In this document: positions 30,924 through 63,326 of the stretch, one piece after another | Position numbering within the stretch: position 1 is the first letter of the stretch | How the letters are laid out: the number at the start of each line of letters is the position of its first letter | NCBI GenBank assembly: GCA_003552585.1 | Contig: PUNK01000057.1 | Span: 720 to 64,719 of the forward strand | DNA length: 64,000 bases | Direction: 5' to 3' | Origin: Thermoplasmata archaeon | GTDB taxonomy: Archaea; Thermoplasmatota; Thermoplasmata; Halarchaeoplasmatales; Halarchaeoplasmataceae | The notes under the pieces: generated by a model | Told to the model about the DNA's origin: nothing | Database searches by the model: none | What the model saw: the letters and a program-made list of their open reading frames with translations, nothing else | Translations under genes and position numbers: made by a program

Positions 30924-30925
30924 AT

Positions 30926-34436: not shown

Positions 34437-34471
34437 TATATTTGACCGAAGTAGTATAGATTATATAAAAC

Positions 34472-35341: not shown

Positions 35342-35346
35342 TTTAT

Positions 35347-37209: not shown

Positions 37210-37247
37210 CCATAAAAATAATATCCCCATAAACATTCCCTAGACCT

Positions 37248-38045: not shown

Positions 38046-38046
38046 G

Positions 38047-38586: not shown

Positions 38587-38632
38587 CTGATAAGAAGATT
38601 TATAAAGACCGATTACGGATGAGGGATTCAAT

Positions 38633-39331: not shown

Positions 39332-39337
39332 TTTGCC

Positions 39338-41545: not shown

Positions 41546-41585
41546 TGAATTCAAAAGATAAAAAATAAATAAGGAGGACTATAAA

Positions 41586-41834
41586 ATGAAGATGTTCGTG
41601 ACCGAATTGCGAGGTAAAACGGTGATGACCAATGATGGGCAGATACTGGGGATGATAGATAATTTTGTCGTGGATACAAAAACAGGTGAGATTAAACATG
41701 TCTTAGTGACTCCAGCCGAGGATATTGAAACCAGGCTTTTTGATACCGATGCTGAGGGACGTATCGTACTACCCTTCAAAGGCATGAAGGCAGTAAGAGA
41801 TGTAGTAGTAATGGAGAATATCACCCTAGAATGA
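41586..41834 (+). CDS. PRC-barrel domain protein
   Basis: LRGKTVMTNDGQILGMIDNFVVDTKTGEIKHVLV; AAGGAGG SD upstream. Confidence 0.6.
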   Translation: MKMFVTELRGKTVMTNDGQILGMIDNFVVDTKTGEIKHVLVTPAEDIETRLFDTDAEGRIVLPFKGMKAVRDVVVMENITLE

Positions 41835-41884
41835 TGATTTAGGTCCTATTACTAAATGGCATACTAATCAAAAGGTTTGGATTC

Positions 41885-42676: not shown

Positions 42677-42681
42677 TCTAC

Positions 42682-43674: not shown

Positions 43675-43732
43675 TGTAGGTATATATAGAAGTCGAGGGA
43701 ATTTAACATTTTCCCCGATTTATGATATATGA

Positions 43733-45298: not shown

Positions 45299-45654
45299 TT
45301 ATTTAAAATAAATTCTACCTCTTCATCCATGGCATCAAGAACCGAAGAAAAGTTTTCTCTCGTACCTGTCCTGATAATCAGCACATGCTCATCATCGACC
45401 TTCTTTAAAATTGTGTCGCCATCGATTGCCCTCATAACGATCCTTTCAGGCTTATTTTTACGAAGATGCTCGTTTGCTGTGTTCGCAGCCCCAAATATAG
45501 TAGCAGTCATCAAACCAAATGTTTCCAAACTCATATCATCTTCCTTACCCGATGCAGCTACGATGTTTCCATTCTTTTTTAGAAGGATGCATAGCTCTAT
45601 CTCACTCATGCCCCCCAATTTTTTCAACGAATCTAGTACCACCGCTATGGACAT
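45274..45654 (-). CDS. Roadblock/LC7 (MglB-like) domain protein
   Basis: alpha-beta-beta-alpha-beta pattern LKKLGGMSEIELCILLKKNGNIVAASG...; 25-nt overlap with the downstream KaiC-like gene. Confidence 0.55.
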   Translation of the reverse strand: MSIAVVLDSLKKLGGMSEIELCILLKKNGNIVAASGKEDDMSLETFGLMTATIFGAANTANEHLRKNKPERIVMRAIDGDTILKKVDDEHVLIIRTGTRENFSSVLDAMDEEVEFILNNWEEVIWR

Positions 45655-45801
45655 CTCATTACCTCCATATAATACACCTTATTACTCACGACTAAAAATA
45701 ATTTTTCATTGGAAAAAGATTTTCATGTGAAAAAGATTTTAGGCAGGTACAGAGAGCGGACTTTGATAATGATTTTAAACCCCTCCCTCTATACACTTAC
45801 G

Positions 45802-47472
45802 ATGAAAAGTGATGTGACGATAGCTCAGGAAGTGGATTTAGAACCGATCATTGACGTGGCCGCTAAAATAGGATTATCTGATAATGATATAGAGCAGTGG
45901 GGAAGCCACAAAGCAAAACTGACCTTGGATGCAATCAGCAAATATTGTAAGGGTAGTGGTGGGAAACTTATCCTAGTTACAACTATGACGCCCACTTCGG
46001 GTGGTGAAGGTAAAACAACGATAACCATAGGGCTAACCCAAGCACTATGGAGAAAAGGCATAAAGGCGATGCTCGGTATACGAGAACCTTCCATAGGACC
46101 TACTATGGGGATCAAAGGAGGGGCAGCTGGAGGAGGGTATTCACAGGTACTCCCCATGGAAGACATAAATCTTCATTTTACTGGTGATCTCCATGCCATC
46201 GGAACCGCCCACAACTTACTTTCTGCGATGGTTAACAACCATCTTCATAGGGGTAACAGATTGGATATAGATCCCAGGAAGATTGTCTGGCCGAGGGTTG
46301 TAGACATGAATGACAGAGCTCTTAGGAACACAGTCGTAGGATTAGGTGGAAGGATACACGGGATGCCCATGGAGAACTCATTCGGAATAACTGCAAGTTC
46401 AGAAGTGATGGCGGTTCTTTGTTTAACAGAAGGATTAAGCGAGTTAAAGGAAAGGTTGTCCCGTATGATAGTCGGTTACACCTTTGAGGGAGATGCGATC
46501 AGAACGAATGATGTCGGCGGGGTAGGTGCGATGGCTGCTTTGATGAAACATGCCATCAAACCCAACCTTGTTCAAACACTTGAAGGAGGACCAGCCTTTA
46601 TACACGGTGGTCCTTTCGCGAATATTGCTCACGGGACCAGCAGCTTAATATCCACTAAAGTGGGGATGAATCTTGCAGATTATTTTATAACTGAAGCAGG
46701 ATTCGGTTCAGATCTGGGTGCTGAAAAGTTTTTCAACATAGTATGTAGAGAGGGAGATCTAAAACCTGATGCAGTCGTGATGGTAGCCACCGTTAGGGCA
46801 CTTAAGAGACAAGGCGGTGTTTCAAAAAAAGATCTAGATAAAGAAAATGTTGGTGCGATGAAAAAAGGTCTATCTAACCTGTCAAAACACCTTGAAAACA
46901 TTCAACTATTCGGACTCCCGGTTGTGGTTGCGATAAATCGTTTCCCATCTGACACGGATAAAGAAATAGAGTACTTATCCAAGCTGTGTGAGAAAATAGA
47001 CATACCTCATGCGGTAGTAGAGGTACATGAAAAAGGAGGCGAGGGAGGACTAGAACTAGCTGATGAGCTATTAAAGATATGCCGATCAGAATCATCTAAT
47101 TTTAGCCCATTATATTCACTCAGTGAAAATCCGAGAGATAAGATATACGATATTTCTACCAAGATCTACGGTGCTGAAGATGTGGTGTATACACAGCAGG
47201 CAGCTAGAGACCTAAGGAGGATCCAACGTCACGATCTTGAAGATTTACCTATATGCATGGTAAAAACACAGTATTCTCTCTCTGATGATAGAAAACTCAA
47301 AGGAAGGCCTTCCGGATTCGAAATCAAGATACACGAAATCGGAGTGAACGCTGGGGCAGGTTTTCTTATACCGATGGCTGGAGATATAACAACTATGCCC
47401 GGCCTCCCATCTAGACCTGCTGCGGTGGATATTGATATTGATGAAGACGGAAAAATATCGGGGTTGTTCTGA
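45802..47472 (+). CDS. fhs: formate--tetrahydrofolate ligase
   Basis: PTSGGEGKTTITIGL and full-length FTHFS similarity. Confidence 0.9.
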   Translation: MKSDVTIAQEVDLEPIIDVAAKIGLSDNDIEQWGSHKAKLTLDAISKYCKGSGGKLILVTTMTPTSGGEGKTTITIGLTQALWRKGIKAMLGIREPSIGPTMGIKGGAAGGGYSQVLPMEDINLHFTGDLHAIGTAHNLLSAMVNNHLHRGNRLDIDPRKIVWPRVVDMNDRALRNTVVGLGGRIHGMPMENSFGITASSEVMAVLCLTEGLSELKERLSRMIVGYTFEGDAIRTNDVGGVGAMAALMKHAIKPNLVQTLEGGPAFIHGGPFANIAHGTSSLISTKVGMNLADYFITEAGFGSDLGAEKFFNIVCREGDLKPDAVVMVATVRALKRQGGVSKKDLDKENVGAMKKGLSNLSKHLENIQLFGLPVVVAINRFPSDTDKEIEYLSKLCEKIDIPHAVVEVHEKGGEGGLELADELLKICRSESSNFSPLYSLSENPRDKIYDISTKIYGAEDVVYTQQAARDLRRIQRHDLEDLPICMVKTQYSLSDDRKLKGRPSGFEIKIHEIGVNAGAGFLIPMAGDITTMPGLPSRPAAVDIDIDEDGKISGLF

Positions 47473-48134
47473 TGAACGTGGAACTATTAAGGTATACTCC
47501 AGAACCGGACAAGATCGCAGCTTTTTCTGCCTTAACTTGTTATCGTGAATCATTACCGTTAGAGGATGAACTTTCCGAAGAGATGATCGAAGAGATACTA
47601 GATAAGATAAAGGAAAGCGGTCACCACAGTGTTATAGAGCATGCATCCTTCACATTCGCAGTGGAAGGTGTATCTCGATCTTTGACACACCAATTAGTTA
47701 GACATCGTTTAGCTTCTTACAGTCAGCAGAGCCAGAGGTACGTAGATATAGAAAGCTTTGACCCTATAATACCCGATTCCATAAATACGGATGAAGAAGC
47801 GAGGAAAATTTACGATGAATTTGTGGGAGAAGTAAAAAAAGTGTACAGCAAGCTTAAAGACCATGTGCCTCTGGAAGATGCTAGATACGTTTTGCCAAAT
47901 GCAACTAAGAGCAACATAATAATAACCATGAATGCCCGTGAGCTCTGGCACTTCTTTTCTCTCAGATGCTGTAAAAGAGCGCAATGGGAGATACGTGATC
48001 TAGCACACAGGATGCTCGATCTTTGTAAAGAAGTCGCTCCACTTATCTTTGAAAATGCTGGCGCACCCTGTCTGAGGGGACCTTGCCCTGAAGCACCAGA
48101 ATTTTTCTGTGGTGACCCCTACGAAAAGGACTAG
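47472..48134 (+). CDS. thyX: flavin-dependent thymidylate synthase
   Basis: RHRxxSxxxxSxRY ThyX signature (VRHRLASYSQQSQRY); TGATG stop/start overlap with fhs. Confidence 0.85.
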   Translation: MNVELLRYTPEPDKIAAFSALTCYRESLPLEDELSEEMIEEILDKIKESGHHSVIEHASFTFAVEGVSRSLTHQLVRHRLASYSQQSQRYVDIESFDPIIPDSINTDEEARKIYDEFVGEVKKVYSKLKDHVPLEDARYVLPNATKSNIIITMNARELWHFFSLRCCKRAQWEIRDLAHRMLDLCKEVAPLIFENAGAPCLRGPCPEAPEFFCGDPYEKD

Positions 48135-48219
48135 ATACTCTAGATAATTCTGTATTATTACTCGGTGTATATTGTATTAGGCGAAAGAATGTTATACCAA
48201 AAGAGTTTTAATAAATGTT

Positions 48220-48396
48220 ATGAGACGGGAATTGATGGAGATACTGCGTTGTCCAGAGTGCAAAGGAGAACTCGAATTAACTGTGGAAGAGGAGATGGAG
48301 GAAATAGAGAAGGGAGAGTTGTATTGTGATAAATGTGGTATAGTTTATCCCATAGAAGAAGGGATTCCTAACATGCTTAAGGAGTCTCAAAGGTAA
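48220..48396 (+). CDS. Trm112-like small zinc-ribbon protein (methyltransferase activator family), 58 aa
   Basis: MRRELMEILRCPECKGELEL...LYCDKCGIVYPIEEGIPNML matches the Trm112/UPF0434 signature; absent from the ORF track. Confidence 0.6.
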   Translation: MRRELMEILRCPECKGELELTVEEEMEEIEKGELYCDKCGIVYPIEEGIPNMLKESQR

Positions 48397-48890
48397 TCTC
48401 TCTGTATTTCCACCACCTCTGTACTGTTCTTTGCTCTACTGTACCTTTCCAAAGGTTCTTTATTGATCTCTAGAAATTTTTCACCCCATCTAAAGTTGGT
48501 CATGAGTGCTCTTGCTTCTTCCTTCTCACCTAGTATGTATAAAGAAGCCGAAAGAGCCTCGGCGGTGGTTAGGCGTAAAGGCTTTCCAAAATTTACTGGA
48601 TTGGTCGCTAATATATAAGGTAAAGCTCTCCCGTTCTTAGAAGAAGGTATTTTAGGTAAAGGATCAGACCAGGTGCAATCTACCGCTCTGATACCGCCCT
48701 TTTCAACTATAGTTTTGTCTTCTGGAGAGAGAGCTTTTTCTGCAAAAGGGGTTAGACATACTCCGTCGGAAATCAATTCTCTCTTTTTCAACAACCTTTT
48801 GGCCTTTCCTTTCTCAACCAATTTATTAGCAGTGCATTTCTTAGGATCGCACTCCTTATACATGTATATGTAGAGCTCCATTCGATGCAT
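48387..48890 (-). CDS. tsr3: 16S rRNA aminocarboxypropyltransferase Tsr3 (DUF367)
   Basis: CDPKKCTANKL motif and TDD-domain-like remainder. Confidence 0.75.
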   Translation of the reverse strand: MHRMELYIYMYKECDPKKCTANKLVEKGKAKRLLKKRELISDGVCLTPFAEKALSPEDKTIVEKGGIRAVDCTWSDPLPKIPSSKNGRALPYILATNPVNFGKPLRLTTAEALSASLYILGEKEEARALMTNFRWGEKFLEINKEPLERYSRAKNSTEVVEIQRDYL

Positions 48891-48977
48891 GATAGAGCTG
48901 AAAGATTATAAATAACTTACCAGAGCTGTGTGTTTTTGAAGGAAAAATATAATTAATAAATTACCTATCTTGTAATA

Positions 48978-49036
48978 GCCCGATGATGAAGAATCCAAAT
49001 CTGATCTCATGATGAGTGATGGGCAGTCTGATGGGC
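48978..49036 (+). ncRNA. C/D-box sRNA (2'-O-methylation guide)
   Basis: terminal stem GCCC/GGGC; C box ATGATGA; 11-nt guide; D' CTGA; 4-nt spacer; C' ATGATGA; 12-nt guide; D box CTGA. Confidence 0.7.
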
Positions 49037-49055
49037 ATTAAAGGTTGTTGAAACC

Positions 49056-49661
49056 ATGGTAACCGGATTTGATGTATTACACAGCAACACACCGTTGCAG
49101 AAACACTGGTTAAAAAGAGTTATAGCCTACGTCATAGACCTTTTATTTTCCTCATTTGTGGTCTATGTTATCATGATGGCCTTGGGTTTGTTAATTCCTA
49201 ACATGATCATCTACTTCTTCCCGGTCGCAGGTATGGTACAGGTGTTCTACTCTGCGGTATTTGAATATTACAAAAGGCAAACACTGGGAAAGATTATACT
49301 AGACCTGCAGGTGGAGCCCCTAAAAGCCTCACTGGAACTCAATGATTGTCTACTAAGGAATATAAGCAAAGTGCATGGGGTTTTAGTCCTTTTAGACACC
49401 CTTGTCGGTTTAGCTACTGAAGGAGACCCTAGGCAGAGATACACTGATCGTATCGCTTACACTACGGTAAGAGGTGCTGTCGAACCTCATCATTTCGACC
49501 AGTTCTTGATGGGACACAGGTACGAAAAAAAAGAGGATACCAGAGATAAGACAAGTCAGTTGGAAAAACCTGAGAAGAGATCGTGCAGAGAATGCGGCGG
49601 AAATTTAGAAGAGATAGATTTTGGACAGTCTCGATGCACAGAATGCGGTAGGATACAGTAG
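49056..49661 (+). CDS. RDD-family membrane protein with C-terminal zinc ribbon
   Basis: WLKRVIAYVIDLLF RDD pattern; CRECGG...CTECG. Confidence 0.55.
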   Translation: MVTGFDVLHSNTPLQKHWLKRVIAYVIDLLFSSFVVYVIMMALGLLIPNMIIYFFPVAGMVQVFYSAVFEYYKRQTLGKIILDLQVEPLKASLELNDCLLRNISKVHGVLVLLDTLVGLATEGDPRQRYTDRIAYTTVRGAVEPHHFDQFLMGHRYEKKEDTRDKTSQLEKPEKRSCRECGGNLEEIDFGQSRCTECGRIQ

Positions 49662-49667
49662 GTTCTT

Positions 49668-50963
49668 ATGTACATTTCAATAGATGATACGGATTCTAAG
49701 GATGGTATGTGCACCACATATCTAGCGACCGAACTGATCAAGGAGTTCAATGATCTATATCTGGTGGATCACCCAAGACTCGTGCGTTTAAATCCAAACG
49801 TACCTTGGAAAACGCGTGGGAACGGAGCAATTGTCCTTCATCTTGGTCAGGGAGGCAGAAAAAAAAGGAAGATAGGATATATCGATGAAGAGATCTATCT
49901 TTATGAAGGCGATAGTACATTTTTAAACGAAGCTTTAGAGCGAGCTACAGCAATCGTAGAAAAGTGGGCATGTGACTCTGAAGGAACGAATCCTGGCATC
50001 GTGATATCAAACCAAAGACCAGGGATCGAACTGTACAAAAAAGCTGTAAAAGATGTTGTTGAACTTACAGAGGTAATGGATATTTTAGATGGGGGAGAAT
50101 ACTCTTATAAAGGATATAAAAACAAAAGAGGTTTGATAGGTGCTACTTCTGCTCTATCTTGGGAACCTGATGACCATACATATGAACTGTTAACTTACAG
50201 AGAGGATGCGAGGTGGGGCTCTGAAAGAGATCTTAACGATGAGGATGTAAAAAGATTCGACATCGAAACATTATACACTTTTGATAGTTATGACCATGAA
50301 GAAAACATCCAGGCGATCGCCCCAAATTCTCCCTGTCCCGTTCTTTACGGAGTTAGAGGAGAAGAACCGTCAGAACTAATGAAAGCTTTGTCCATGATAG
50401 GTGGTGAACGAGTTGAGAGATGGTTGTTGTTTCTTACCAATCAGGCAACGGATGATCATGTTCAAAAACAGGTGATCGGTCGATTGAGACCATGGACCTC
50501 GTGTGATATAATTGGTGAAATTTCTCGTTCTCCATGGACCATAGAAGGAGGACACGTGTTTTTTGATGTCGATTACAACGGAAATACGGTAACCGCAGCG
50601 GCCTACGAGCCGACCAAAGGATTCAGAGACGTGGTAAAAAAACTGACCGATGGTGATAAAGTTCGAGTGATAGGCGGGGTGCGAAAAGACCCGATTACTG
50701 TCAATATTGAAAAAATCGAAATACTCGAATTGGCAGAGAAGAAGATAAAAAAAAGTAACCCAAAGTGTCCTGATTGTGGAAAGAGGATGTCTTCGATGGG
50801 AAAGGACGCTGGATATCGCTGTAAGAGATGCAGGATCAAAGCGGATGAAGACGAAGCAGAAATAGTTACGGTTGATAGGGATCTAGAGCAAAAATATTAT
50901 GAGACCCCTGTTGTGGCAAGGAGGCATCTTTCTAAACCGTTAAAGAGGGTTGAAAAGTTGTGA
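49668..50963 (+). CDS. tiaS: tRNA(Ile2) 2-agmatinylcytidine synthetase
   Basis: MYISIDDTDSKDGMCTTY TiaS N-terminal signature; C-terminal Zn ribbon CPDCG...CKRC. Confidence 0.85.
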   Translation: MYISIDDTDSKDGMCTTYLATELIKEFNDLYLVDHPRLVRLNPNVPWKTRGNGAIVLHLGQGGRKKRKIGYIDEEIYLYEGDSTFLNEALERATAIVEKWACDSEGTNPGIVISNQRPGIELYKKAVKDVVELTEVMDILDGGEYSYKGYKNKRGLIGATSALSWEPDDHTYELLTYREDARWGSERDLNDEDVKRFDIETLYTFDSYDHEENIQAIAPNSPCPVLYGVRGEEPSELMKALSMIGGERVERWLLFLTNQATDDHVQKQVIGRLRPWTSCDIIGEISRSPWTIEGGHVFFDVDYNGNTVTAAAYEPTKGFRDVVKKLTDGDKVRVIGGVRKDPITVNIEKIEILELAEKKIKKSNPKCPDCGKRMSSMGKDAGYRCKRCRIKADEDEAEIVTVDRDLEQKYYETPVVARRHLSKPLKRVEKL

Positions 50964-51010
50964 TTTATGGGCAAAAATTAATCTATAATGTATTTCCTAT
51001 CTATAGCTAG

Positions 51011-51271
51011 GTGAAATATATGGAAGAAAAGGTAGGAAGTGTATTCAAGTATTTTAGAAAACCAAAAGTTGCGGCGGTAAAAATAGAATCAGGCGAAGTA
51101 AAGATAGGAGACAAATTACGTTTTAAAGGAGAACATACTGATTTTGTTCAAGAGGTAAAATCTATGCAGATAGATATGGAGGAAGTCGATGAGGTCGCAG
51201 CTGGAGATGATGTTGGGATCAAGGTCGATCAAAGGGTGAGACCGAACGACGAAGTCTTTTTGGCAGAATAA
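51011..51271 (+). CDS. small beta-barrel protein resembling EF-Tu domain 2
   Basis: GEVKIGDKL...AAGDDVGIKV...NDEVFL pattern. Confidence 0.3.
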   Translation: MKYMEEKVGSVFKYFRKPKVAAVKIESGEVKIGDKLRFKGEHTDFVQEVKSMQIDMEEVDEVAAGDDVGIKVDQRVRPNDEVFLAE

Positions 51272-51277
51272 CTATCC

Positions 51278-52666
51278 TTATCCCGGATAATACTTCTCGA
51301 TCCATTTCTCTTCGATTCTCTTGAGTTCCCTATTTGGTATGGTAGTTAACAGTTCCCACGCTAAGTCAAGGGTTTCATCTATTGTTCTATCTTCGTCTTC
51401 CCCCTGGGCTATGAACCTCTCTTCGAATTGGTCTGCAAATTCTAGATAAGTTCTATCTCTTTCACTTAAAGCCTCTTCACCTACCACAGCAACCAGATCT
51501 CTCAATTCAAGTCCCTCGGCGTAGGTTGCGTAGAGCTGATTGCTCACGTCCATATGATCCTCCCTCGTCCTTTCTTTTCCGATCCCCTGCTGCATAAGGC
51601 GTGAAAGACTTCCGCCTGGGGTTATCGGTGGCCGTATACCCTTTCTGTGTAATTCTCTGGAAAATACTATCTGACCTTCGGTGATATACCCTGTTAGATC
51701 GGGTATAGGATGGGTGATATCATCATCGGGCATGCTCAAGATAGGGAGCATGGTTATCGAACCATCTCTACCTCGTATCCTTCCAGCTCTTTCATATATG
51801 CTTGCAAGATCGGTGTACATATATCCTGGATAACCTCTTCTTCCAGGGACCTCTTCTCTGGCCGCGGCTATTTCACGTAATGCCTCACAGTAATTCGTGA
51901 TATCCGTTAGTATCACCAGTACCTGCATCCCTTCTTCAAAGGCTAGATATTCTGCTGCAGTTAGGGCCATACGAGGAATAATGATCCTCTCAATAGCTGG
52001 ATCGTTAGCTAGGTTCAGGAACAGTACCGCTCGCTCAAGAGCCCCCGTTCTTTCGAAATCGTTGATGAAAAAGTTTGCTTCTTCCGAGGTGATACCCATA
52101 GCACAAAACACCACGGCGAACTCTTCTTCCTCTCCAAGGACTTTTGCTTGGCGGGCTATCTGAGCAGCTACACTGTTATGTGGTAGACCGCTGGCACTGA
52201 ACATGGGTAACTTTTGTCCTCTGACCAACGTGAACATACCATCTATCGTTGATATTCCTGTCTGAATAAATTCCCTTGGAAATTCTCTTGCTGATGGATT
52301 GATCGGATCTCCGTTTATGTTCCGCCTTTCTTCAGGTATGATATCCGGACTTCCATCTATCGGTTCACCGACCCCGTTGAAAACCCTGCCTAAAAGTTCT
52401 CGGGAAACCCCGAATTTCATCACTTCACCGGTGAACTGTACTGAAGTATCCTTTGTATCCAATCCACGGGTACCTGCAAAAACCTGTAAAACAGCTCTAT
52501 TGGAATCAACCTCTAATACCTGCCCAATTCTTTCTTCACCACTAGGTAGGCGAACCTTAGCGATCTCATTGAAAGCGACATCAGTCACGTCCTCGACTAC
52601 CATTAGAGGACCTGAGACCTCTACCACGTTCTTGTATTCTGTTCTCTTGGATACTTCACTTTCCAT
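51278..52666 (-). CDS. atpB: A-type ATP synthase subunit B (start ATG at 52666 with GGAGG SD; ORF track TTG/GTG start at 52693)
   Basis: full-length similarity to A/V-ATPase B; [11 protein letters not shown] start. Confidence 0.9.
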
Positions 52667-52667
52667 C

Positions 52668-55061
52668 TTAATCATCCTCCATAAACGATTCAAATCCCTC
52701 GTTCATCTTCATCTCAATGTGATCGAATCTTTCTTCCCATTTATCTGAAGGAACGTTAGACATCCTACTTAGATCTTCAACAACATCCATCGCCACTATA
52801 TCATCTACTGAAACGCCCTTTTCCACTGCATCCATCCCTCTTTCGTAGAACTCCATCATGATTTCGATCATCCTGAACTGCTTTTCAGGGTCGCAGTAGG
52901 TATCCACATCGTGGAAGGCGTTCTGCTGCAGGAAGTCTTCTCTGATGACACGTGCAGCTTGAAGGGCAAATCTATCGCTTTTAGGAAGAGCATCCGGGCC
53001 GACGAGTTGAACGATCTCCTGAAGCTCCGACTCCTTTTCCAGCAGACGCATGCTCTCTCTCCTGAGTTCATGCCATTTTTCATTAATATTCTCGTTCCAC
53101 CATCCTTTAACCGAATCTAGATATAGAGAATAAGAGCGAAGCCAGTTGACTGCTGGGAAATGACGTTTGTTTCTTAATTCTACATCCAAGGCCCAGAAAA
53201 CCTGCACGATCCTTAGGGTGTTCTGGGTCACTGGTTCTGAGAAATCTCCACCTGACGGACTGACTGCACCGATGACTGAAATCGAACCATCTTCTCCATT
53301 CAAAAGCTCACATATACCTGCTCTTTCGTAAAAAGAGGCTAAAGATGATGCTAGATATGCGGGATAACCTTCCTCACCCGGCATCTCTTCTAATCTACCT
53401 GAAATCTCTCTTAATGCCTCTGCCCATCTAGATGTTGAATCAGCCATAAGTGCAACGTTGTATCCCATATCTCTATAATACTCTGCCAACGTGATCCCAG
53501 AGTACACAGATGCTTCTCTTGCAGCTACGGGCATATTACTTGTATTTGCAATTAAAACTGTACGCTTCATAAGCGGTTCCCCAGTACGAGGGTCCTCCAA
53601 CTCAGGAAAATCCCGTAGTACTTCAGTCATCTCGTTCCCTCTTTCACCACAACCGACGTAGACGACGATATCCGCATCGCTCCACTTAGCTAATTGGTGC
53701 TGGATCACCGTATTATGTAATATCATGGGTGCATTACCGCCTACAAAATTGTGAGTTCCAGGAACGGTAAGATCGTATACATCTTTTGTTTCATCTTTCA
53801 ATTCTACAGATGTAACAGGATCTGGGAGGAAATGATCTAAGTGGTTATGCTCATCTCTTGAAATTCCCACCCTTTCTTCACTCTGTTCATCTCCTTTTGT
53901 TTTATTGATCGCATTCTTCAAAGTGTCTTCTCTAGGTGCTAATAGGGTGTCTCCACTTTGTAGCTTACCAGCCGGTTGCTCTTTGATTTGCTGATCTGAT
54001 GTTAGGACGAAGAGTTTGTGAACCGGTGTCACTTCCACTTCCCGTCCCGAATCGGTTGTGACCACTACAGTACTATCTGTTTTACCTTTATAGATGCATG
54101 TCGCATGCTTTTTAATTATCTTTCCATCATCCATCGAAAGGATGTCCAAAGGATCGTTTAATTCTATCAACTCTTCGTGATCATCAAGGTTTGAATCAAT
54201 TCTCTTGATGCCTTGATCTTTGTACTCTTCGAAAATTTCTTCGATCGCTTTTTTTGTGCCATCGGCTAAGATCACCGGAGTATCTCCGGTTATACATTTG
54301 CCGGTCCCGAACCCCCCGGGTATGGCGGCGGTACCGCCTTTAGCGAGTGGAAAGAATGTATCCAGGACACGCTGTCCGGTGATAAGTAGTTCACCCGGTG
54401 CTTTCTTTCTCCCGATCGGACGTCTTATCCTTACTGGCCACCGCTGTTTCATCTTGATCTCTTCTTCACCGGTGGAAGTTTTTACACGAGCGATAGTATC
54501 TGTTATTGTGTATTCTCCTTCATTGACTATCTCTTCGATTTTCCCGCTGATACCATGAGGCACCATAACTTTGTGTTCTACAACTTTTGTTTCAGGCACA
54601 GTCCCGATGATATCACCTGCTGAAACTTCATCACCCTCTTTAACATCAGGAATAAACTTCCAGTGCTTTTCCTCGTCTAATGGTGGTACATCAACACCAC
54701 GAAGTATGAAATCTCCTGCCTCTGATTTTATGGCCTCCAAAGGACGTTGGATACCGTCATATATCTGCTGTATGAGTCCTGGACCGAGTTCTGCGGACAA
54801 GGGGTCTCCGGTTCGTTTTACGGGTTCTCCAGGCTTCAATCCACCCGTCTCTTCGTAAACTTGGATTGTAGCTACATCTCTCTCTAAGCCTATTATCTCT
54901 CCGATCAGACCAGCTTCACCTACCTCTACTACTTCATACATCTCTGCCCCTTTTAGGTTTCCAGCCTCTACTACAGGTCCAGCGATCCTGTTTATCTCTC
55001 CGACTTGTTCTTTCTTAGGCTTAGAGATACGCTCTATCCGCTTTTCAACATCTTCTTCCAT
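52668..55061 (-). CDS. atpA: A-type ATP synthase catalytic subunit A, interrupted by an in-frame mini-intein
   Basis: 797 aa vs ~585 expected; P-loop GGFGTGK|C...HN|T split. Confidence 0.9.
53712..54296 (-). mobile_element. 195-aa mini-intein in the atpA P-loop (no homing endonuclease domain)
   Basis: starts [13 protein letters not shown] (block A), TPVH (block B), ends [23 protein letters not shown] (blocks F/G) followed by +1 Thr of GKT. Confidence 0.8.
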
Positions 55062-55062
55062 A

Positions 55063-55395
55063 TCAACTGTCCTCCTTTAATGTGATATCTATTCCAACTG
55101 CACGTTTTATTTTCTCTTCAAGTGGGTCTTCTTTTCCTTTTATCGGTCCTTTAGCATCCGGCAGCTCTACTATTATCGGGTAAAGTTCCTTACCCTCGAT
55201 GAGTTTGTTAAGTTCGAAACGTATAGACTCGGCAACGTCCTCCGAGATGAGAACAACAGCAACGTCACCAGACTCAACAAATTCCGTCAGAAGTCTGAGG
55301 GTTAAGTGCTCGTCCTCGTGAACGTGGGATTCATTAACACCTGCAAGTGAAAAACCTTCTGCGAAATACTCTCCACCTATAGCGACTATCTTCAT
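55063..55395 (-). CDS. atpF: A-type ATP synthase subunit F
   Basis: [20 protein letters not shown] typical subunit F. Confidence 0.85.
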
Positions 55396-56528
55396 ACTCT
55401 ATCCTCCATCACTAACAACGCTTCGATGCTCTCAGACGGCATCTTTTCCCTTAAACCTCGGCTCAGTATATTGAGGTTCCTAAGCTCTACTTCCTTACCC
55501 ACCAAAAAGCGAAGTAGGGGACCCACACTGAGCACGTTCTGACTCATCACTTCCGAGGCCATCTGGATCATCTTTTTATCCAGGTATTTTTCTATCTCAA
55601 ACGGTCCCATGGTAGCAGCGTCACGTCTGATCTCCGCGTAGGAAGTGCCTTCCAATTCAACCAGTGCTTCTTCTAAGCCCGATGATTCAACCATACTTTC
55701 AAGCTTCCATCGTTCCAGCTCTCTGCCCGATGGGAGTAGAGCTTTCTTTAACTGCTCCTTATCCACCCCTTCTCTGAGACCCCTTATCAATATCTTCAAG
55801 TTCTTAACGTCAACGTACCTGCCGAAGAAGTACTTGACCGGTGGTCGTTCTTCGGATTCTACATTTTTAACTGATTTTTGGATACGCTGGTAAACGTATC
55901 TATCGAAGGACACTTCCAAAGAGTACATGTCTTCAGTAGGATCTTCACCCTGCAGCGGCTCTTCGAAACCCGCCTCCTTCAAAATGTCGATGACCTCCTG
56001 GAGATCACGAGCGTTCACCAAACTATCGATCACTTTCTCGTCCACCCTCCTTACGGGGATCAATTTTTCACTCATATCTTCTCTAGAATCTCCAGTCATT
56101 TTGGACTTCAGCGCACGTTTTGCCATCCTTACGTCGAACCGAAGTAGCCATGCACCGGCGAACTCCTTGGCGGAAAGGGGACAGTTTCTGTACGCCCTCC
56201 TCATGAAGGACATGGTTTCACTTTCCAGCTCCCTTTCCAGTTCGTTCTGGTCCAGGGTAGCTTCTTTGGAAAGGTCATATCCTCTATCCTCCAGTTCCTG
56301 ATATACTTCATTAAGATTGTTTCCTTCGACCAAAGGTGAGAGTACGCTGTTACTCAAAAAGGGATTGCCGATGGCTCGGTATTTGGCGTTAGGATAAGTA
56401 AAACTAGCTATCGATAGTAACACTTTGAAATAACTCATAACCAGCAGTACGACTATAAGTAATGAGCCGCCGACTATGACCAACACGAAGTTGGTGATTC
56501 CTAGGGAATCGATAACCCCTTCTAACAC
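55392..56528 (-). CDS. atpC: A-type ATP synthase subunit C (d-like), with an unusual ~30-aa hydrophobic N-terminal extension if the operon-abutting start is used
   Basis: YPNAKYRAIG...; size and position in operon. Confidence 0.75.
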   Translation of the reverse strand: MLEGVIDSLGITNFVLVIVGGSLLIVVLLVMSYFKVLLSIASFTYPNAKYRAIGNPFLSNSVLSPLVEGNNLNEVYQELEDRGYDLSKEATLDQNELERELESETMSFMRRAYRNCPLSAKEFAGAWLLRFDVRMAKRALKSKMTGDSREDMSEKLIPVRRVDEKVIDSLVNARDLQEVIDILKEAGFEEPLQGEDPTEDMYSLEVSFDRYVYQRIQKSVKNVESEERPPVKYFFGRYVDVKNLKILIRGLREGVDKEQLKKALLPSGRELERWKLESMVESSGLEEALVELEGTSYAEIRRDAATMGPFEIEKYLDKKMIQMASEVMSQNVLSVGPLLRFLVGKEVELRNLNILSRGLREKMPSESIEALLVMEDRV

Positions 56529-57110
56529 TCAGATTTCCTCCTTAAACATCATCTCAGATATCTCTTTTCGGATATCTTTTTTCATACGTTCTAGATTGGA
56601 TTCGAAGGTAAGGTCTATGAACGAGCCGCTTTCAGAACGTGCTTTGATGCCCCCCACCGATATAAGATCGGCTTTTACTTTAACCGAAGGAGCGATCTTT
56701 TTAGCCATCTCACTCACCAGCTCTTTACTCTCTTCATTACACGATACCGTGATATCCTTTCCCAATACTTTAACGCATTTGCCTATGGCTTGTCGGATAT
56801 AAACTTTATAATCCTCCGCCTGTAGAGAACCAAGTTTTTTCAAAGCCTCTTGGAATATCTCATCTATCATCTCCTCCCTAACTTCAAGCTCACGCTTACG
56901 GGCGTCCAGCTTAGCTTGGGAGCGGATGCGGTTCTTCAACGTCCTCAGCTCTCTGTCGCTCTCTTTTTTGAGTTCGTCGAGTTTTCTCTCCTTCTCGGAG
57001 ATTATCTTCTCCTTTTCAGACTCAGCCTTATCACGGGCTCTCTTGGCGATGATCTTCGCCTTCCGTTTTGCGTCCGTTCTTATCCGCTTAACCAATTTAT
57101 CTACCGACAT
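56529..57110 (-). CDS. atpE: A-type ATP synthase subunit E
   Basis: 193 aa, charged N-terminal helix, position in operon. Confidence 0.8.
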   Translation of the reverse strand: MSVDKLVKRIRTDAKRKAKIIAKRARDKAESEKEKIISEKERKLDELKKESDRELRTLKNRIRSQAKLDARKRELEVREEMIDEIFQEALKKLGSLQAEDYKVYIRQAIGKCVKVLGKDITVSCNEESKELVSEMAKKIAPSVKVKADLISVGGIKARSESGSFIDLTFESNLERMKKDIRKEISEMMFKEEI

Positions 57111-57119
57111 CTTAAGCCC

Positions 57120-60100
57120 TCACATAAACCCAAAGAACACTATTATAAATATCGCTATCAACAGACCGAAGATAGCAAAGGTCTCCGACATAACGCTGAA
57201 TATCATGCCCTTGCCGAATACCTCCTCTCGTTTTGTCACAGCGGCTATGGCGGAACCCGAGGTTATACCCTGACCGACTCCGGATACACCGGCTATACCT
57301 ATGGCAAGCCCGGCGCCGACGGCGGCCACACCCATGCCTACGGTAAGATCAGTATCTCCACCCAGCATGCCGCTGAATACCATGAGCAGTATTCCGATCA
57401 AAAGCCCGTATATAGCCTGAGTTTCGGGAAGTACGGAGAATACCATACCCCTTCCGAACATCTTCTCGTTCTCCGTCACCGTTGCAACTCCACTGGCTGC
57501 GGCGATACCTTGGCCTATACCTGAAAGACCTGCGATGCCAACCGCTAAACCTGCACCTACGCCAACCATCCCAATTGCTAGGTCCAATGGAGGTCCTTCG
57601 CCCAATAAACCGCTGAATATCATAAGTAATATGGCGATCAACAGCCCGTATATAGCCTGAGTTTCGGGAAGTACGGAGAACACCATGCCCCTGCCGAACA
57701 ATTCTTCTTTTTCAGCCACACAACCTATACCGCTGGCTGCGGCGATACCCTGGCCTATACCGGATAGGCCGGCGATACCTACGGCTAAACCTGCACCTAT
57801 AGCTGTCAACCCTATAGCGTAGCCTGATTCACCAAGGACGACTTCAGGGAAGTCTCCTGCTAATAACCCGCTGAATACCAGTAATAGTATGGCTATCAGT
57901 AAACCATAGATGGCCTGGGTTTCCGGTAAAACGGAGAATACCATTCCTTTGCCGAACATCTTTTCATCCTCGGCCACTGTTGCGATACCACCGGAAGCGG
58001 CGATACCTTGGCCGATACCTGAAAGGCCTGCGATGCCCACGGCTAACCCGGCTCCCATACCTACTATACCCATGGATGCTTCCATGGTAACAGCATCTCC
58101 CAGCATACCTGAGAAAACCATCAACAGTATGGCCAACAGTAGTCCGTATATCGCCTGTGTTTCCGGAAGCACCGAGAATACCATACCCTTTCCGAATAGT
58201 TCCTCTTTTTCAGCCACCGTCGTAACACTGCTGGCTGCGGCGATACCTTGACCTATACTGGACAACCCTGCTAGACCTACAGCGAATCCGGCACCAACGG
58301 CCATCATGCCTATGGCTAGACCGGAATCCCCTGCCATTATGGGGTCGCCCTCACCTGCCAGTAAACCTGTAAATATCATCAAAAGTATACCTACGAGAAG
58401 TGCATAGATCGCCTGGGTTTGAGGTAGTGCCTGGAATACCAATGATTTACCGAATTTGTCCGGATCCTCGGTCACTATACCCGCACCCGCCGCACCTACT
58501 ATACCCACCCCTATGCCGGCTCCCATACCGGCTATACCTACGGCTAAACCTGCTCCCACACCGACCAATCCCAAAGATGATTCGATTGAAGTCGGGTCTC
58601 CCAACATGCCTGTGAAAATTAGTAGTAATATAGCAATAAGTAATCCGAATATAGCGAAGGTCTCTGACATCACACTAAAGATCATTCCTTTTCCGAATAC
58701 TTCACTTCGTTTTGCAACAGCGGGTATAGATGCCCCCGAAGTTATCCCCTGACCCACACCCGAGATACCAGCAATGCCTACTGCTAAACCAGCCCCTATC
58801 GCTATCATGCCCAAACCGTGACCTTGATCACCCAACAACGCAGTAGGATAATCCCCTGTCAACAGGCCTGAGAAGACCATCAAAAGGATAGCTATGAGTA
58901 AACCGTATATCGCCTGTGTCTCCGGAAGCACTGAAAAAACCATGCTCTTCCCGAACATCTTTTCGTCGTCGGTAACGGTGGCTATACCACTTGCCGCTGC
59001 GATGCCCTGGCCGATACCGGATAGCCCTGCTATCCCCACGGATAATCCTGCACCGACTCCAACCAGACCTAGGCCTATGTGTAGTGGTTCTCCATCACCC
59101 GCCAATAAACCGCTGAATATCATCAATAATATGGCGATCAACAAACCGTATATCGCCTGGGTTTCCGGAAGTACCGAGAACACCATACCTTTACCGAATA
59201 TCTCTTCATCTTCGGCCACACAGCTTATACCGCTGGCCGCAGCGATGCCTTGGCCGATACCGGATAGTCCTGCGATGCCCACCGCCAAGCCGGCACCGAT
59301 AGCTATCAAGCCCAAGGCGTAACCGGAGTCTCCAGCCATTATAGATGCCGGGTCTCCGGCTAGAAGGCCGGTGAACACCATCAGTAATATAGCTATGAGT
59401 AAACCGTAGATGGCTTGTGTTTCCGGTAGCACGGAGAATACCATGCCCTTACCGAACAGCTCCTCCTTCTCGGCTACTGAAGATATACCGCTTCCCGCTG
59501 CGACTCCTTGGCCTATGCCTGAAAGCCCGGCCACTCCGACCGCGATGCCGGCGCCTATACCTACCATGCCTAGGCCTAATCCGTATTCTCCCAGCATGAA
59601 GGCGTGAATATCTCCCCCTAGGAGACCAGTGAACACCATCAGCAATATTGCTATCAATAAACCGTATATTGCCTGTGTTTCCGGAAGTACGGAGAATACC
59701 ATACCTTTACCGAACAATTCTTCCTTCTCTGAATAAGCGGCTACACTACCGGAGGCGGCTATACCCTGCCCGACAGCGGATAGGCCAGCGATCCCCACCG
59801 CCAAACCGATACCCAACGAGATTATACCTATGGGTAGGGGAACGTAAGCTCCGTCACCGAGAACTCCGGTGAATAGTAACAGTAAAACGGCTATGAGTAA
59901 ACCGTATATAGCTTGGGTTTGAGGTAGTGCCTGGAACACCAAACATTTACCGAATTTATCCGGACTCTCGGCAACGGTACCCGCACCCGCCGCACCGGTT
60001 ATACCGACACCGATGCCTGCACCCATCCCTGCGATCCCAACGGCAAGCCCTGCCCCTATGGCAGTCAAATAAGTTCCACGCTCGTCCCTTTCAACGATTA

Positions 60101-60482
60101 TTTCGATCGAATGTGAATAAGATACATCATCATCCGTTATCTCAAGGGTAACCGTGTAATTCCCCAGCTCGTATTCACGTGTTACATTTTCGGCTATAAG
60201 CTCTTCGATATCCATCGGTCCTAGTTCATATCCCTCTCCATCTCCAAAGTCCCATGAGGCATTAAATGGACCATCAGGATATTCATCCACATCCAAATGG
60301 ATACCGAATTTTATTTCCACTGGCTCATCTTCATCAACGGTGTATATCCTGGCCCTTTCTTCCACAACATCTCCATCAACCATTATCTTTAGCTCGTTTT
60401 CTCCCTCTGCTATGACTGAAGGAAGAAGGGCAGATACGATGATAAGTAAGATGAAAACTATGATCAACCTGTGCCCCTTCAT
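57120..60482 (-). CDS. atpK: A-type ATP synthase proteolipid subunit K as a single 12-hairpin fusion, preceded by a signal peptide and PKD-like domain
   Basis: aa 1-25 signal peptide; aa ~30-135 PKD motif (WDFGDG...YTVTLEITDDD); 12 repeats of ...GxGxAxGxAGxxxxGQGIAA...FGKGMVFSVLPETQAIYGLLIAILL. Confidence 0.85.
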   Translation of the reverse strand: MKGHRLIIVFILLIIVSALLPSVIAEGENELKIMVDGDVVEERARIYTVDEDEPVEIKFGIHLDVDEYPDGPFNASWDFGDGEGYELGPMDIEELIAENVTREYELGNYTVTLEITDDDVSYSHSIEIIVERDERGTYLTAIGAGLAVGIAGMGAGIGVGITGAAGAGTVAESPDKFGKCLVFQALPQTQAIYGLLIAVLLLLFTGVLGDGAYVPLPIGIISLGIGLAVGIAGLSAVGQGIAASGSVAAYSEKEELFGKGMVFSVLPETQAIYGLLIAILLMVFTGLLGGDIHAFMLGEYGLGLGMVGIGAGIAVGVAGLSGIGQGVAAGSGISSVAEKEELFGKGMVFSVLPETQAIYGLLIAILLMVFTGLLAGDPASIMAGDSGYALGLIAIGAGLAVGIAGLSGIGQGIAAASGISCVAEDEEIFGKGMVFSVLPETQAIYGLLIAILLMIFSGLLAGDGEPLHIGLGLVGVGAGLSVGIAGLSGIGQGIAAASGIATVTDDEKMFGKSMVFSVLPETQAIYGLLIAILLMVFSGLLTGDYPTALLGDQGHGLGMIAIGAGLAVGIAGISGVGQGITSGASIPAVAKRSEVFGKGMIFSVMSETFAIFGLLIAILLLIFTGMLGDPTSIESSLGLVGVGAGLAVGIAGMGAGIGVGIVGAAGAGIVTEDPDKFGKSLVFQALPQTQAIYALLVGILLMIFTGLLAGEGDPIMAGDSGLAIGMMAVGAGFAVGLAGLSSIGQGIAAASSVTTVAEKEELFGKGMVFSVLPETQAIYGLLLAILLMVFSGMLGDAVTMEASMGIVGMGAGLAVGIAGLSGIGQGIAASGGIATVAEDEKMFGKGMVFSVLPETQAIYGLLIAILLLVFSGLLAGDFPEVVLGESGYAIGLTAIGAGLAVGIAGLSGIGQGIAAASGIGCVAEKEELFGRGMVFSVLPETQAIYGLLIAILLMIFSGLLGEGPPLDLAIGMVGVGAGLAVGIAGLSGIGQGIAAASGVATVTENEKMFGRGMVFSVLPETQAIYGLLIGILLMVFSGMLGGDTDLTVGMGVAAVGAGLAIGIAGVSGVGQGITSGSAIAAVTKREEVFGKGMIFSVMSETFAIFGLLIAIFIIVFFGFM
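57123..60062 (-). repeat. 12 tandem ~240-260-bp coding repeats (c-subunit hairpins) organised as a duplicated 6-hairpin super-repeat
   Basis: recurrent nucleotide blocks such as gtttccggaagtacggagaataccat at ~240-bp intervals; hairpins 1/7 and 6/12 are pairwise most similar. Confidence 0.8.
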
Positions 60483-62614
60483 TCACTCCCCTCCTTGCTC
60501 GTGGTGAATCTTCTTTCTGGTTTGAAAGGTTTGAATTCCGTACCACCGCCTTCATAGAAGTAACCGAAGAACTCTACGTACTGCAGCCTGAGAGAATGTA
60601 CGAAGGAACCCAAGGCCTGAAGTGAAGCATTGATGATATGTCCTCCAACCAGAACTACAAGGGAAAGTATATAGAAGGGATATACGGGATCGATAAATCC
60701 CAGTCCGCCGATCACCATAATAGAAATTCCAGCACCCATTATTTTTTTATCTTTTGAGAGTGTGGAACGTATGAGTAGAACGGAACCAATAGCTACCACT
60801 ACCAAAGCCATCATCGTTCCCATCGACCCGTCTGCTACAAGATATGCAAGCACGTTGACCGTTAAAGCGATCCCTGCCGTGGCAAGGCCGAGGGCAAGAA
60901 TCCTGGCAAAGGAGAGAAAATCACCCAAAAAACCCGTTAATGCGAAGAATGAAAGTCCTTTAGCCCTGACCACCAGAAGGCCAAGACCAACAACGCTCAT
61001 TATAGCAGCAATGGTGTAAACTGTTCCTGTGAAATCGTACCAGCCAAAGAGCATACCCGATAGGAGTATGAAGCCACCCGGCTGCAGAAGCCACCATGAA
61101 ACGTTCTCGAGTAAGACATGCCTGTAATTCTTCCGTCTTATATGTTGTATCAGGGATAGGACGAGACCTATGTTTATGTATGCCAGCCCTATCAGTAGAG
61201 ATATTATCAAGAGAATCAGCGGTCCATCACCCTCTAGGGTATCAAGAAGAAGTGGTGGATCAAGACCGAAGCGGCCCAAGAGATTAAGATATTCTTCTCT
61301 ATTTGGGCCGAGATATCCTCCCTGGAGAATCCCGAAGATGAAAGTTGATAATCCTGCCGCCAACAGTATCAAAGAAAAGTCCCTTGTACCCTTCTCTATC
61401 TTACCTATGCCGTAATATAAAACTAGAGAAACCGCTATTATCAAACCACCATAAACCGCATCGCCCAACATCAGACCAAAAAAGATAACGAAGGCAGGTG
61501 CAATTATAAGAGTTGGATCGACCTCGTCATATCTTGGAGGTGCGAACATCCTCGTGAGCAGTTCGAAGGGTTTCAAAAGCTTAGGATTATCTAAAGATAC
61601 AGGCACATAATCAGGGTCTCGAGGTTCCTCAGAAACCAATAAACCGTATCCTCTGGACTGCTTTTTTACCTCTCTCTCTACCTGTGGCACCAGGTCTTCA
61701 GGAGCCCACCCTTTGATGATCGCGGTCGTATCGGTCCGTCCGAACTGCTGGTAGGCTTCCATTTTGTTACGGAATATCTCAAGCTCTTCTTCAAGCACAA
61801 AAAAATCGAGTTGATGCTCTTTTTTTTGTTCCACCAATGAGGTGAAGAGATCCTCTTCCTCCTTCTTCATCTCCCTTATTCGCTTATCTAATTTGTCTAG
61901 TACGTCGGAAGGGATACCTTTTAATTGACCGAAGTCAAAGATTTTTACATTTGTCTCCCTCAGCACCATATCCAATCTTTTACGATCTCTTATATAAGCT
62001 CCAGCGATGGCGATGTATTCCTTTTCTTTTCTCCTTTGAAGAATAAGGTGGGAAGTATCTATTTCTGATAGTTTTCTCTTTAGTAGAGTAGTATTTTGTG
62101 TCTTTCCTACACGATATACCGTGTATGGTGAATCACCGATATAGCTGAGATCGATATCTATATCGATCATCTGTTGAACACTTCTGCGGATAGATTCAAA
62201 CTCTTCGATCTTTTCTCTCTTTTTGTTGAGTTCTCTGCTCAGTTTAAGAATATTTTTTCCCACGGAATCCATGAGATCATCTATCTCTTCTTTTAGTGCT
62301 GAAAAATCTTTCATTTCTCTTTTTACAGGTTCGATCTCCTTTGGAAATATGAGATCTTTGATGCCTTCTTCCTTGACTTCTATACTGCTAAAAACGTCTT
62401 GTACGGAGGTAAGTTTCATCTCATACTCGGTACAATCGGATAGATTTTTGTGTATAGAACCATCGTCTATTAAACTGCTCAAATCAGTATCCCTTTCTAC
62501 GTTAGATATCTCTATTTCACCCATGGAATGAAGACCTTCTACAACTTCGTCCAAGTAAGAATCGTGTACGATTATAGTGACGTCCTTCATCCTCTTGGGG
62601 AAGAGTATGTTCAT
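60479..62614 (-). CDS. atpI: A-type ATP synthase subunit I (a-subunit)
   Basis: 711 aa, N-terminal coiled cytoplasmic domain, C-terminal polytopic domain with ARILALGLA (conserved Arg). Confidence 0.85.
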   Translation of the reverse strand: MNILFPKRMKDVTIIVHDSYLDEVVEGLHSMGEIEISNVERDTDLSSLIDDGSIHKNLSDCTEYEMKLTSVQDVFSSIEVKEEGIKDLIFPKEIEPVKREMKDFSALKEEIDDLMDSVGKNILKLSRELNKKREKIEEFESIRRSVQQMIDIDIDLSYIGDSPYTVYRVGKTQNTTLLKRKLSEIDTSHLILQRRKEKEYIAIAGAYIRDRKRLDMVLRETNVKIFDFGQLKGIPSDVLDKLDKRIREMKKEEEDLFTSLVEQKKEHQLDFFVLEEELEIFRNKMEAYQQFGRTDTTAIIKGWAPEDLVPQVEREVKKQSRGYGLLVSEEPRDPDYVPVSLDNPKLLKPFELLTRMFAPPRYDEVDPTLIIAPAFVIFFGLMLGDAVYGGLIIAVSLVLYYGIGKIEKGTRDFSLILLAAGLSTFIFGILQGGYLGPNREEYLNLLGRFGLDPPLLLDTLEGDGPLILLIISLLIGLAYINIGLVLSLIQHIRRKNYRHVLLENVSWWLLQPGGFILLSGMLFGWYDFTGTVYTIAAIMSVVGLGLLVVRAKGLSFFALTGFLGDFLSFARILALGLATAGIALTVNVLAYLVADGSMGTMMALVVVAIGSVLLIRSTLSKDKKIMGAGISIMVIGGLGFIDPVYPFYILSLVVLVGGHIINASLQALGSFVHSLRLQYVEFFGYFYEGGGTEFKPFKPERRFTTSKEGSE

Positions 62615-62925
62615 ACCTCCTGAAGACGTGAGATCACGTGTTCGACAGCCTCATCCTTATGTTCATCAGTGAGCTCTTTAAGTCTTTTAGCTCTTTCTTC
62701 TCCCTCCTTACGGATCTCTTCAGCTTGCTCCTCCGCCCTTTTTTTTACTTCTTTTCTTTCCTGCTCAAGATTTTTTTTAAATGAAAATATCTCGTCTTCT
62801 TTATCCTGCTCAGCCTCTTTTTTCGTACGTTTTATCAGATCCTCACCCTTTCTTCCAGCCCTCTCGATCATCTTGAGAGCTTTCTTTTCCGTCTCTTTGA
62901 CGATTTCTATTTCTTCGATAGGCAT
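62611..62925 (-). CDS. atpH: A-type ATP synthase subunit H (ORF track extends to a TTG at 62961)
   Basis: ~104 aa, highly charged helical, first gene of the operon. Confidence 0.6.
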   Translation of the reverse strand: MPIEEIEIVKETEKKALKMIERAGRKGEDLIKRTKKEAEQDKEDEIFSFKKNLEQERKEVKKRAEEQAEEIRKEGEERAKRLKELTDEHKDEAVEHVISRLQEV

Positions 62926-63326
62926 GATGGAGCACCCCGTGGCAGGTTTGATACGTTTCAAGTTGTGATTAGTAGTTTAGATATAAGGATTTTGGTAATC
63001 GAACTAATAAATCGAAACAGGATTTTTATTGCACCCGCCGACCGTAGTGTGGAACTAGCTCCACTTTATTCTCGGGCAAAGCCCTGCGGATAGGGAGGCA
63101 ATATACCCACAGCCTTGGCCGTGGGTGCGGGAGCGAAATTGACTTCCCATCAAAAAAGTGTTGTAAATATTACCATATTCTGCCTATAGAAGGCTGACTC
63201 GAACGACATCAGCAGGAAGATAACACCAGTATCGCAAAAGGGCATGGGATATTAGTCGAGGGAGAAACCTTTTTTACACTCCTAGTTCATGGGATAAACG
63301 GAGGAGAATAATTGCCTAAATCGAAT

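Follow-up and report, generated by a model that had tools for sequence, protein, structure and literature searches.

The catalytic subunit A of an archaeal A-type ATP synthase is interrupted, with little doubt, by a naturally minimal intein. The DNA analysed (the window) is a stretch of 64,000 nucleotides (nt) from contig PUNK01000057.1 of a Thermoplasmata archaeon. Its minus strand encodes AtpA as a precursor open reading frame (ORF) of 797 amino acids (aa) plus stop (52668..55061; assigned from the ORF list, Pfam and NCBIfam). The 195-aa insert in this precursor (53712..54296, minus; precursor residues 256-450) was assigned with high confidence to the VMA-b (vma-1b) allele family as a class-1 mini-intein, which lacks a homing endonuclease (HEN) and resides in a haloalkaliphilic Thermoplasmata host. 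The coordinates and junctions were found exactly as they had been claimed in an earlier reading of the letters without database searches (the sequence-only reading).

The precursor scored 909.9 bits against the NCBIfam model PRK04192 (cutoff 470). In the Pfam layout, the flanks comprise ATP-synt_ab_N, ATP-synt_ab_Xtn, ATP-synt_ab and ATP-synt_VA_C, with Intein_splicing nested inside, and the insert splits the nucleotide-binding domain of AtpA. The N-extein (aa 1-255; 54297..55061, minus) ends with the Walker A residues GGFGTGK (54297..54317), and the C-extein (aa 451-797 plus stop; 52668..53711, minus) begins with TVIQHQ. The insert is in frame, and lies between the K and the T of the Walker A motif. 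Homologues without the insert read GGFGTGKTVIQHQ uninterrupted across this site; the nearest of these intein-free proteins are 601-602 aa in length. The spliced subunit had been given as 585 aa in the sequence-only reading; this value has to be corrected, as the arithmetic (797-195) gives 602 aa.

The insert matched the intein profiles far beyond chance. The scores were 78.8 bits against the Pfam family Intein_splicing (PF14890, cutoff 35.8), 64 bits against the NCBIfam model intein_Nterm (TIGR01445, cutoff 24.5), and 32 bits against intein_Cterm (TIGR01443, cutoff 15.6). Moreover, positions 241-358 of PRK14698, which models the intein-bearing AtpA of Pyrococcus, align to the start of the intein. 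The best match of a sequence search against the PDB was the TvoVMA intein (4O1S, E=5e-25, 40% identity), followed by the VMA inteins of Pyrococcus and Thermococcus (7QST, 7QSS and 7QSU, E=1e-19 to 3e-23).

Alignment of 12 mini-inteins from the VMA-b site shows that the catalytic residues are strictly conserved. Block A (54258..54296, minus) carries Cys1, the predicted nucleophile for the N-S acyl shift; this residue is near-invariant, being present in all of the natural sequences, and the lone exception is an engineered C1A crystal construct. Block B (54006..54047, minus) contains the TxxH motif (T90 and H93); whereas blocks F and G (53712..53780, minus; located by TIGR01443 and the invariant residues) contain Asp175 in block F, the penultimate His194 and the terminal Asn195. 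All five of these residues were invariant. The earlier claim that blocks A, B, F and G are present is therefore borne out by both the profiles and the catalytic residues. A linker of 29 aa (intein residues 122-150; 53847..53933, minus) was delimited by alignment with the 529-aa intein of locus L018, which is described below.

The structure of the intein was modelled with AlphaFold2 on the 12-mini-intein alignment. The model had a mean predicted local distance difference test score (pLDDT) of 89.1 and a predicted template modelling score (pTM) of 0.83. Disorder was confined to residues 137-150 (pLDDT <50), and the linker was predicted to form two short helices before this disordered stretch. 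A Foldseek search of the PDB with this model returned TvoVMA (4o1s) at the top, with TM-scores of 0.78/0.89 and a root-mean-square deviation of 1.6 Å. Among the 72 PDB matches at E<=0.001, the first 34 were all inteins (TvoVMA and 33 more). These indicate that the insert is predicted to adopt the HINT fold. The alternative that had been named beforehand, a lineage-specific loop without intein blocks, does not agree with the conserved blocks and with a confident HINT model matching TvoVMA.

The intein of the window is also devoid of a nuclease, as the sequence-only reading had proposed. In Pfam, no LAGLIDADG, HNH or GIY domain was detected at E<=10, and only Intein_splicing and Hint were matched; whereas the 529-aa L018 intein, included in the same scan, gave LAGLIDADG_3 (PF14528) with 61.5 bits. 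Blocks C and E, which are the paired LAGLIDADG motifs bearing the catalytic Asp, are absent from the window intein. No out-of-frame or antisense nuclease ORF was found inside it, and no alternative-frame ORF exceeds 47 aa. No further intein related to the VMA-b intein was found within the 64-kb window.

Two insertion sites are known in this subunit. The archaeal 'b' site corresponds to Lys240|Thr241 of the Pyrococcus horikoshii subunit A (GK|T of the P-loop), and the yeast 'a' site to Gly260|Cys261 (Swithers et al. 2009, PMC2814812); the names VMA-b and VMA-a were used for these sites by Beyer & Iwai (2022, PMC8966425). The insert of the window, between K255 and the +1 Thr, occupies exactly the VMA-b site. 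The equivalent of the yeast VMA-a site (G|C of VYVG|CGERGNEM; 53649..53654, minus) lies 20 residues downstream of the occupied site, and is intact and empty. The sequence-only reading had placed the insert near the VMA hotspot of yeast VMA1 and some archaeal A subunits; more precisely, it is the archaeal site itself that is occupied.

The +1 residue (codon 53709..53711, minus) is the Thr of the Walker A GKT, and would also be the nucleophile of the trans-esterification. Since it is part of this motif, a +1 Thr is obligatory at the VMA-b site. It had been described as less common, which is true of inteins in general; at the VMA-b site, however, it is the rule. An exhaustive HMMER search of 1.84 billion cluster representatives with the intein returned 431 matches, of which the best 150 were parsed. 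At least 45 of these 150 were AtpA proteins with GK|C at the VMA-b site, and every match whose C-terminal junction was complete read HN|T or SN|T (30/30); the inteins of these matches measure 158-543 aa. A word-indexed search of proteins, for which the intein alone was the query, gave one weak match only. The species genomes were scanned with the intein alignment as query; 8-mer patterns of the whole precursor were too specific and gave no matches. The block G motif of the VMA-b family was thus found in 110 species genomes from many archaeal phyla. The motif was located in atpA at the VMA-b site in all 37 of the loci examined, and the complete junctions parsed among them again read HN|T or SN|T (35/35).

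A splicing pathway can be proposed from these features. The atpA gene would be translated into a 797-aa precursor with a split P-loop, which should be unable to bind ATP because of the insert. The HINT domain would then fold and excise itself in four steps: a thioester between Cys1 and Lys255 might be formed by the N-S shift; the +1 Thr would attack this thioester in the trans-esterification; cyclisation of Asn195 would free the intein; and an O-N shift would generate the normal peptide bond. The expected product is a 602-aa subunit A with GGFGTGKT restored. Excision and ligation have indirect support in the low ratio of non-synonymous to synonymous rates in the HINT core (about 0.1, see below). 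The intein would persist because an essential enzyme would be left inactive if splicing were lost.

The nearest named relatives of the host are metagenome-assembled genomes (MAGs) of Ca. Saliniplasma, Ca. Natronoplasma and 'Thermoplasmata archaeon', all belonging to Ca. Halarchaeoplasmatales, with 77-88% extein identity. The host is a member of this haloalkaliphilic order of the Thermoplasmata. An exact look-up of the AtpA protein of the window found no record. The extein search, however, recovered the same allele from a contig of soda-lake sediment (L007/P0152, JGI 3300000477), with no difference among 1806 extein nt. The two alleles differ at 2 nt; both of these differences are located in the intein and are non-synonymous (K31E and I33T), and they fall in an indel-prone surface loop (intein residues 30-38).

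The VMA-b site was found in three states within Halarchaeoplasmatales, including the empty site (601-602-aa alleles), mini-inteins of 177-195 aa, and LAGLIDADG-bearing inteins of 523-529 aa. Among the 25 nearest AtpA clusters, seven carry a mini-intein of 183-195 aa; whereas the other 18 are intein-free (601-642 aa). In the neighbor-joining (NJ) tree of their exteins, every intein-bearing allele has an empty sister. The sequence-only reading had pointed to intein-less alleles in related genomes as a matter to be checked; they do exist, even within the same species-level group. For example, the intein-bearing P0156 and the empty P0155 share 99.2% extein identity, and P0171 shares 99.3-99.7% with the empty P0157 and P0158. 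A further pair consists of the intein-bearing L002 and the empty L004, which are collinear with about 97% DNA identity over 12.5 kb, and differ by one exact in-frame indel of 576 nt. No co-conversion tract was recognised near the junction of this pair: the 42 differences are evenly spread, and the three located within 21 nt are not significant. The divergence of atpA in L002/L004 is also no higher than that of the neighbouring genes.

Two side findings concern genomes with other taxonomic labels. Locus L017, from a MAG labelled Aenigmatarchaeota, has an atpA of the Halarchaeoplasmatales type with a 185-aa mini-intein, for which the identity and third-codon-position GC content (GC3) values equal those of L011 (P0174) over the intein segments compared. 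Locus L047, from a MAG labelled Planctomycetia, has an A-type atpA that is interrupted by a VMA-b intein of 527 aa. Both could represent either mis-binning or real transfer.

Full-length inteins (523-529 aa) occupy the VMA-b site in at least 20 Halarchaeoplasmatales species in the genome scan, and minis of 177-195 aa in five others. The 529-aa intein of L018 retains both LAGLIDADG motifs with Asp (LLGLLLGDG and YFLADGSF). Comparison of this intein with the mini-intein of the window revealed two unequal arms. The N arm (residues 1-122) is 77% identical in protein and 79% in DNA; whereas the C arm (the last 46 residues, 138 nt) is identical in protein (46/46) and 96-97% identical in DNA. The host exteins share only 72-77% DNA identity. 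Between block B and block F, about 335 aa of the L018 intein, which represent the LAGLIDADG nuclease and accessory domain in the full-length relatives, are replaced by the 29-aa linker. No significant match that could be the source of this linker was found by blastn or blastp in the DNA or protein of the full-length inteins. A second comparison, of the mini-intein of L015 with the full-length intein of L031, gave arms of 92-95% identity and a linker that was again unmatched. All the mini-inteins have a homologous linker motif (LLAP[RK]..L.[DN].I[ND]...HL.HF), and the full-length inteins have no counterpart of it. The minis are not monophyletic in the NJ trees of the HINT arms; the window and L002 were clustered with L018, and L015 with L031/L032.

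The patterns of substitution and composition were also compared. In the HINT core, the proportion of non-synonymous differences (pN) between the minis is 0.10-0.24, while their synonymous sites are saturated or nearly so, and the ratio of non-synonymous to synonymous rates (dN/dS) is 0.10 where measurable; in the linker, dN/dS between the minis is 0.4-1.3. The splicing core is thus under purifying selection; whereas the linker is close to neutral. GC3 is 0.28-0.52 in the inteins and 0.33-0.73 in their hosts, and is at or below the host value in all 28 loci. The most extreme contrast was found in L002, with 0.43 in the intein versus 0.73 in the host. Between L002 and the window, 40% of the same-amino-acid codons differ in the intein and 62% in the exteins (p=1e-5). 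The GC3 contrast, the synonymous divergence and the empty L004 allele favour a fairly recent arrival or replacement of the intein in the L002 lineage. The low GC3 of the inteins, together with the 97%-identical 3' arm that the window mini shares with a full-length intein, indicates recombination between intein alleles. The isoelectric point (pI) of the window intein is 4.75 versus 4.72 for the host. A second Cys of the intein, C67, is conserved: every Halarchaeoplasmatales mini has it, as do three of four aligned full-length inteins; His, Ala or Leu stands at this position in other VMA-b inteins.

It is highly improbable that the mature AtpA retains the insert, be it as a lineage-specific loop or as the remnant of a dead intein. 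In favour of this reading, the splicing of AtpA is a prediction, and both of the differences between the window and the soda-lake contig are non-synonymous and located in the intein, next to identical exteins. However, these substitutions are confined to the indel-prone surface loop; whereas the catalytic residues are all intact and invariant, dN/dS of the HINT core is about 0.1, the model has a confident HINT fold, and the ATP synthase operon is otherwise intact. Moreover, with the insert in place GK|T of Walker A is broken up, and an unspliced protein could not bind nucleotide. An intein that does splice might instead be retained for a benefit, as a conditional switch in which salt, pH or redox sets the splicing and gates the assembly of active ATP synthase. 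Salt-dependent splicing has been reported for haloarchaeal inteins. In acidity the intein matches its halophilic host, and C67 is conserved among the Halarchaeoplasmatales inteins at a position where other VMA-b inteins have His. The enrichment of inteins in P-loops has also been argued to mean function (PMC4760082). Such a switch nevertheless seems unlikely, as the composition and recombination signals resemble those of a selfish element. Intein-free alleles are common, make up the majority state and are present in near-identical strains, and this argues against a needed function of the intein.

The mini-intein of the window is probably a form shortened by deletion from the LAGLIDADG-bearing inteins (523-529 aa) that related genomes carry at the same site. 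The sequences are most simply read as one origin of the mini form, with mini and full-length inteins recombining afterwards in the conserved arms; independent deletions are a weaker alternative. For the window itself, a recent and independent internal deletion of an L018-like intein, rather than descent from an old recombining mini lineage, is doubtful. It would agree with the identical last 46 aa, and with the HINT-arm trees, in which the minis are scattered and each stands beside a different full-length intein. However, the unequal identity of the two arms to L018 (79% versus 97%) is a mosaic pattern, and the common linker is without a match in full-length sequences; the same new sequence would not arise from deletions that were independent. 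In the favoured reading, the empty, mini and full-length alleles co-circulate in Halarchaeoplasmatales, and the intein DNA is swapped between lineages by homologous recombination in the HINT arms and the flanking exteins. This suggests that the HEN-less form takes part in horizontal exchange, which goes slightly beyond the textbook view. A bolder and rather speculative proposal is that the HEN-less mini is a non-autonomous mobile element, which spreads horizontally among Halarchaeoplasmatales by arm and extein recombination, or by LAGLIDADG cleavage in trans from full-length sisters in the same soda-lake communities. Non-autonomous mobility would explain the presence and absence within species, a GC3 that is low and foreign to the GC-rich hosts, the mosaic structure of the arms and the common linker; if true, the mini would be the intein counterpart of a miniature inverted-repeat transposable element (MITE).

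Several points weigh against this overall picture of a splicing and exchanged intein. The splicing chemistry and the inactive precursor are predicted from the conserved residues and the family, and the direction of gain or loss in each pair of intein-bearing and empty alleles is derived from composition only. The low GC3 could partly result from codon selection that acts less strongly on the intein than on a highly expressed host gene; but the non-atpA neighbours in L002 are also high in GC. The comparison sequences are mostly MAGs or metagenome contigs, and the NJ trees are simple ones on short segments, without support values.

Some further features were noted in the surrounding ATP synthase operon and the rest of the window. 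The proteolipid (K/c) subunit (57120..60482, minus) is a single polypeptide of 1120 aa, which contains 12 tandem ATP-synt_C hairpins arranged as two half-repeats of six. In hairpins 1 and 7, the ion-binding Glu is replaced by Gln (PQT versus PET/SET), and the N-terminus consists of a signal or transmembrane segment and a PKD-like domain of about 130 aa. The proteolipids of the relatives are either 1118-1124 aa (L002 and L005) or 433-438 aa (L009, L010 and L012) in length. The window proteolipid resembles the monomeric rotor of Methanopyrus kandleri, which has 13 hairpins. The atpB ORF as listed (51278..52693, minus) has a TTG start, encodes 471 aa and shares 26 nt with the end of atpA. In the relatives, AtpB is 462 aa and starts 2 nt past the atpA stop; the internal ATG at 52664..52666 (MESEVSK...) is therefore the probable start of atpB in the window. 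No atpD follows atpB in the window (49668..51271) or in L002, L004, L006 and L011; in the more distant relative L001, atpD is present after atpB. A convergent TiaS-like gene of 429-442 aa is found after atpB in the relatives, and the 431-aa ORF at 49668..50963 (plus) of the window is probably the same gene. An Rfam scan of the window (1..64000) at gathering thresholds detected no RNA family, not even a tRNA.

The VMA-b intein family has been catalogued since the 1990s. The site, the chemistry and the natural minis of Thermoplasma are already known, and the intein of the window adds one member. As an acidic and naturally minimal intein from a halo-alkaliphile with a +1 Thr, it could serve as a scaffold for salt-tolerant or salt-switchable protein ligation. 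Moreover, with three allele states, strains of about 97% identity that differ only by the intein, and recombining mini arms, Halarchaeoplasmatales would be a handy natural system for the late stages of the homing cycle. It would also be suited to a test of whether HEN-less inteins are truly limited to vertical descent.

The closest known systems are the VMA mini-inteins of Thermoplasma volcanium (TvoVMA, 4O1S) and T. acidophilum, which share the gene, the VMA-b site, the class Thermoplasmata, the absence of a HEN and the +1 Thr; the Thermoplasma VMA mini-intein has been listed as naturally occurring (PMC8229266). TvoVMA is, however, only about 40% identical to the intein of the window, which has a longer linker (about 30 aa) and is strongly acidic. 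The HINT arms of the window intein are closest to full-length inteins of its own order, and not to the Thermoplasma minis. PhoVMA (7QST) and TliVMA (7QSS/7QSU) have the same VMA-b site and a homologous HINT domain, and the segment before block F (NHL.H....V) can be aligned; whereas these inteins are 376-429 aa in length, and contain a LAGLIDADG nuclease (degenerate in Pho and active in Tli) and an accessory domain (PMC8966425). The Saccharomyces cerevisiae VMA1 intein (PI-SceI) is found in the same catalytic A subunit family and shares the splicing chemistry predicted here; but it occupies the VMA-a site (PMC2814812), has a +1 Cys, and is a 454-aa intein with an active nuclease. In the haloarchaea, empty, large and mini alleles coexist in related lineages, purifying selection keeps the minis, and inteins are removed by homologous replacement with an intein-free allele (Soucy et al. 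2014, PMC4071816). The haloarchaeal minis of that study are mainly vertical; whereas the mini-intein of the window has arms that are mosaic with full-length alleles and a composition foreign to GC-rich hosts, which suggests horizontal exchange of the HEN-less form.

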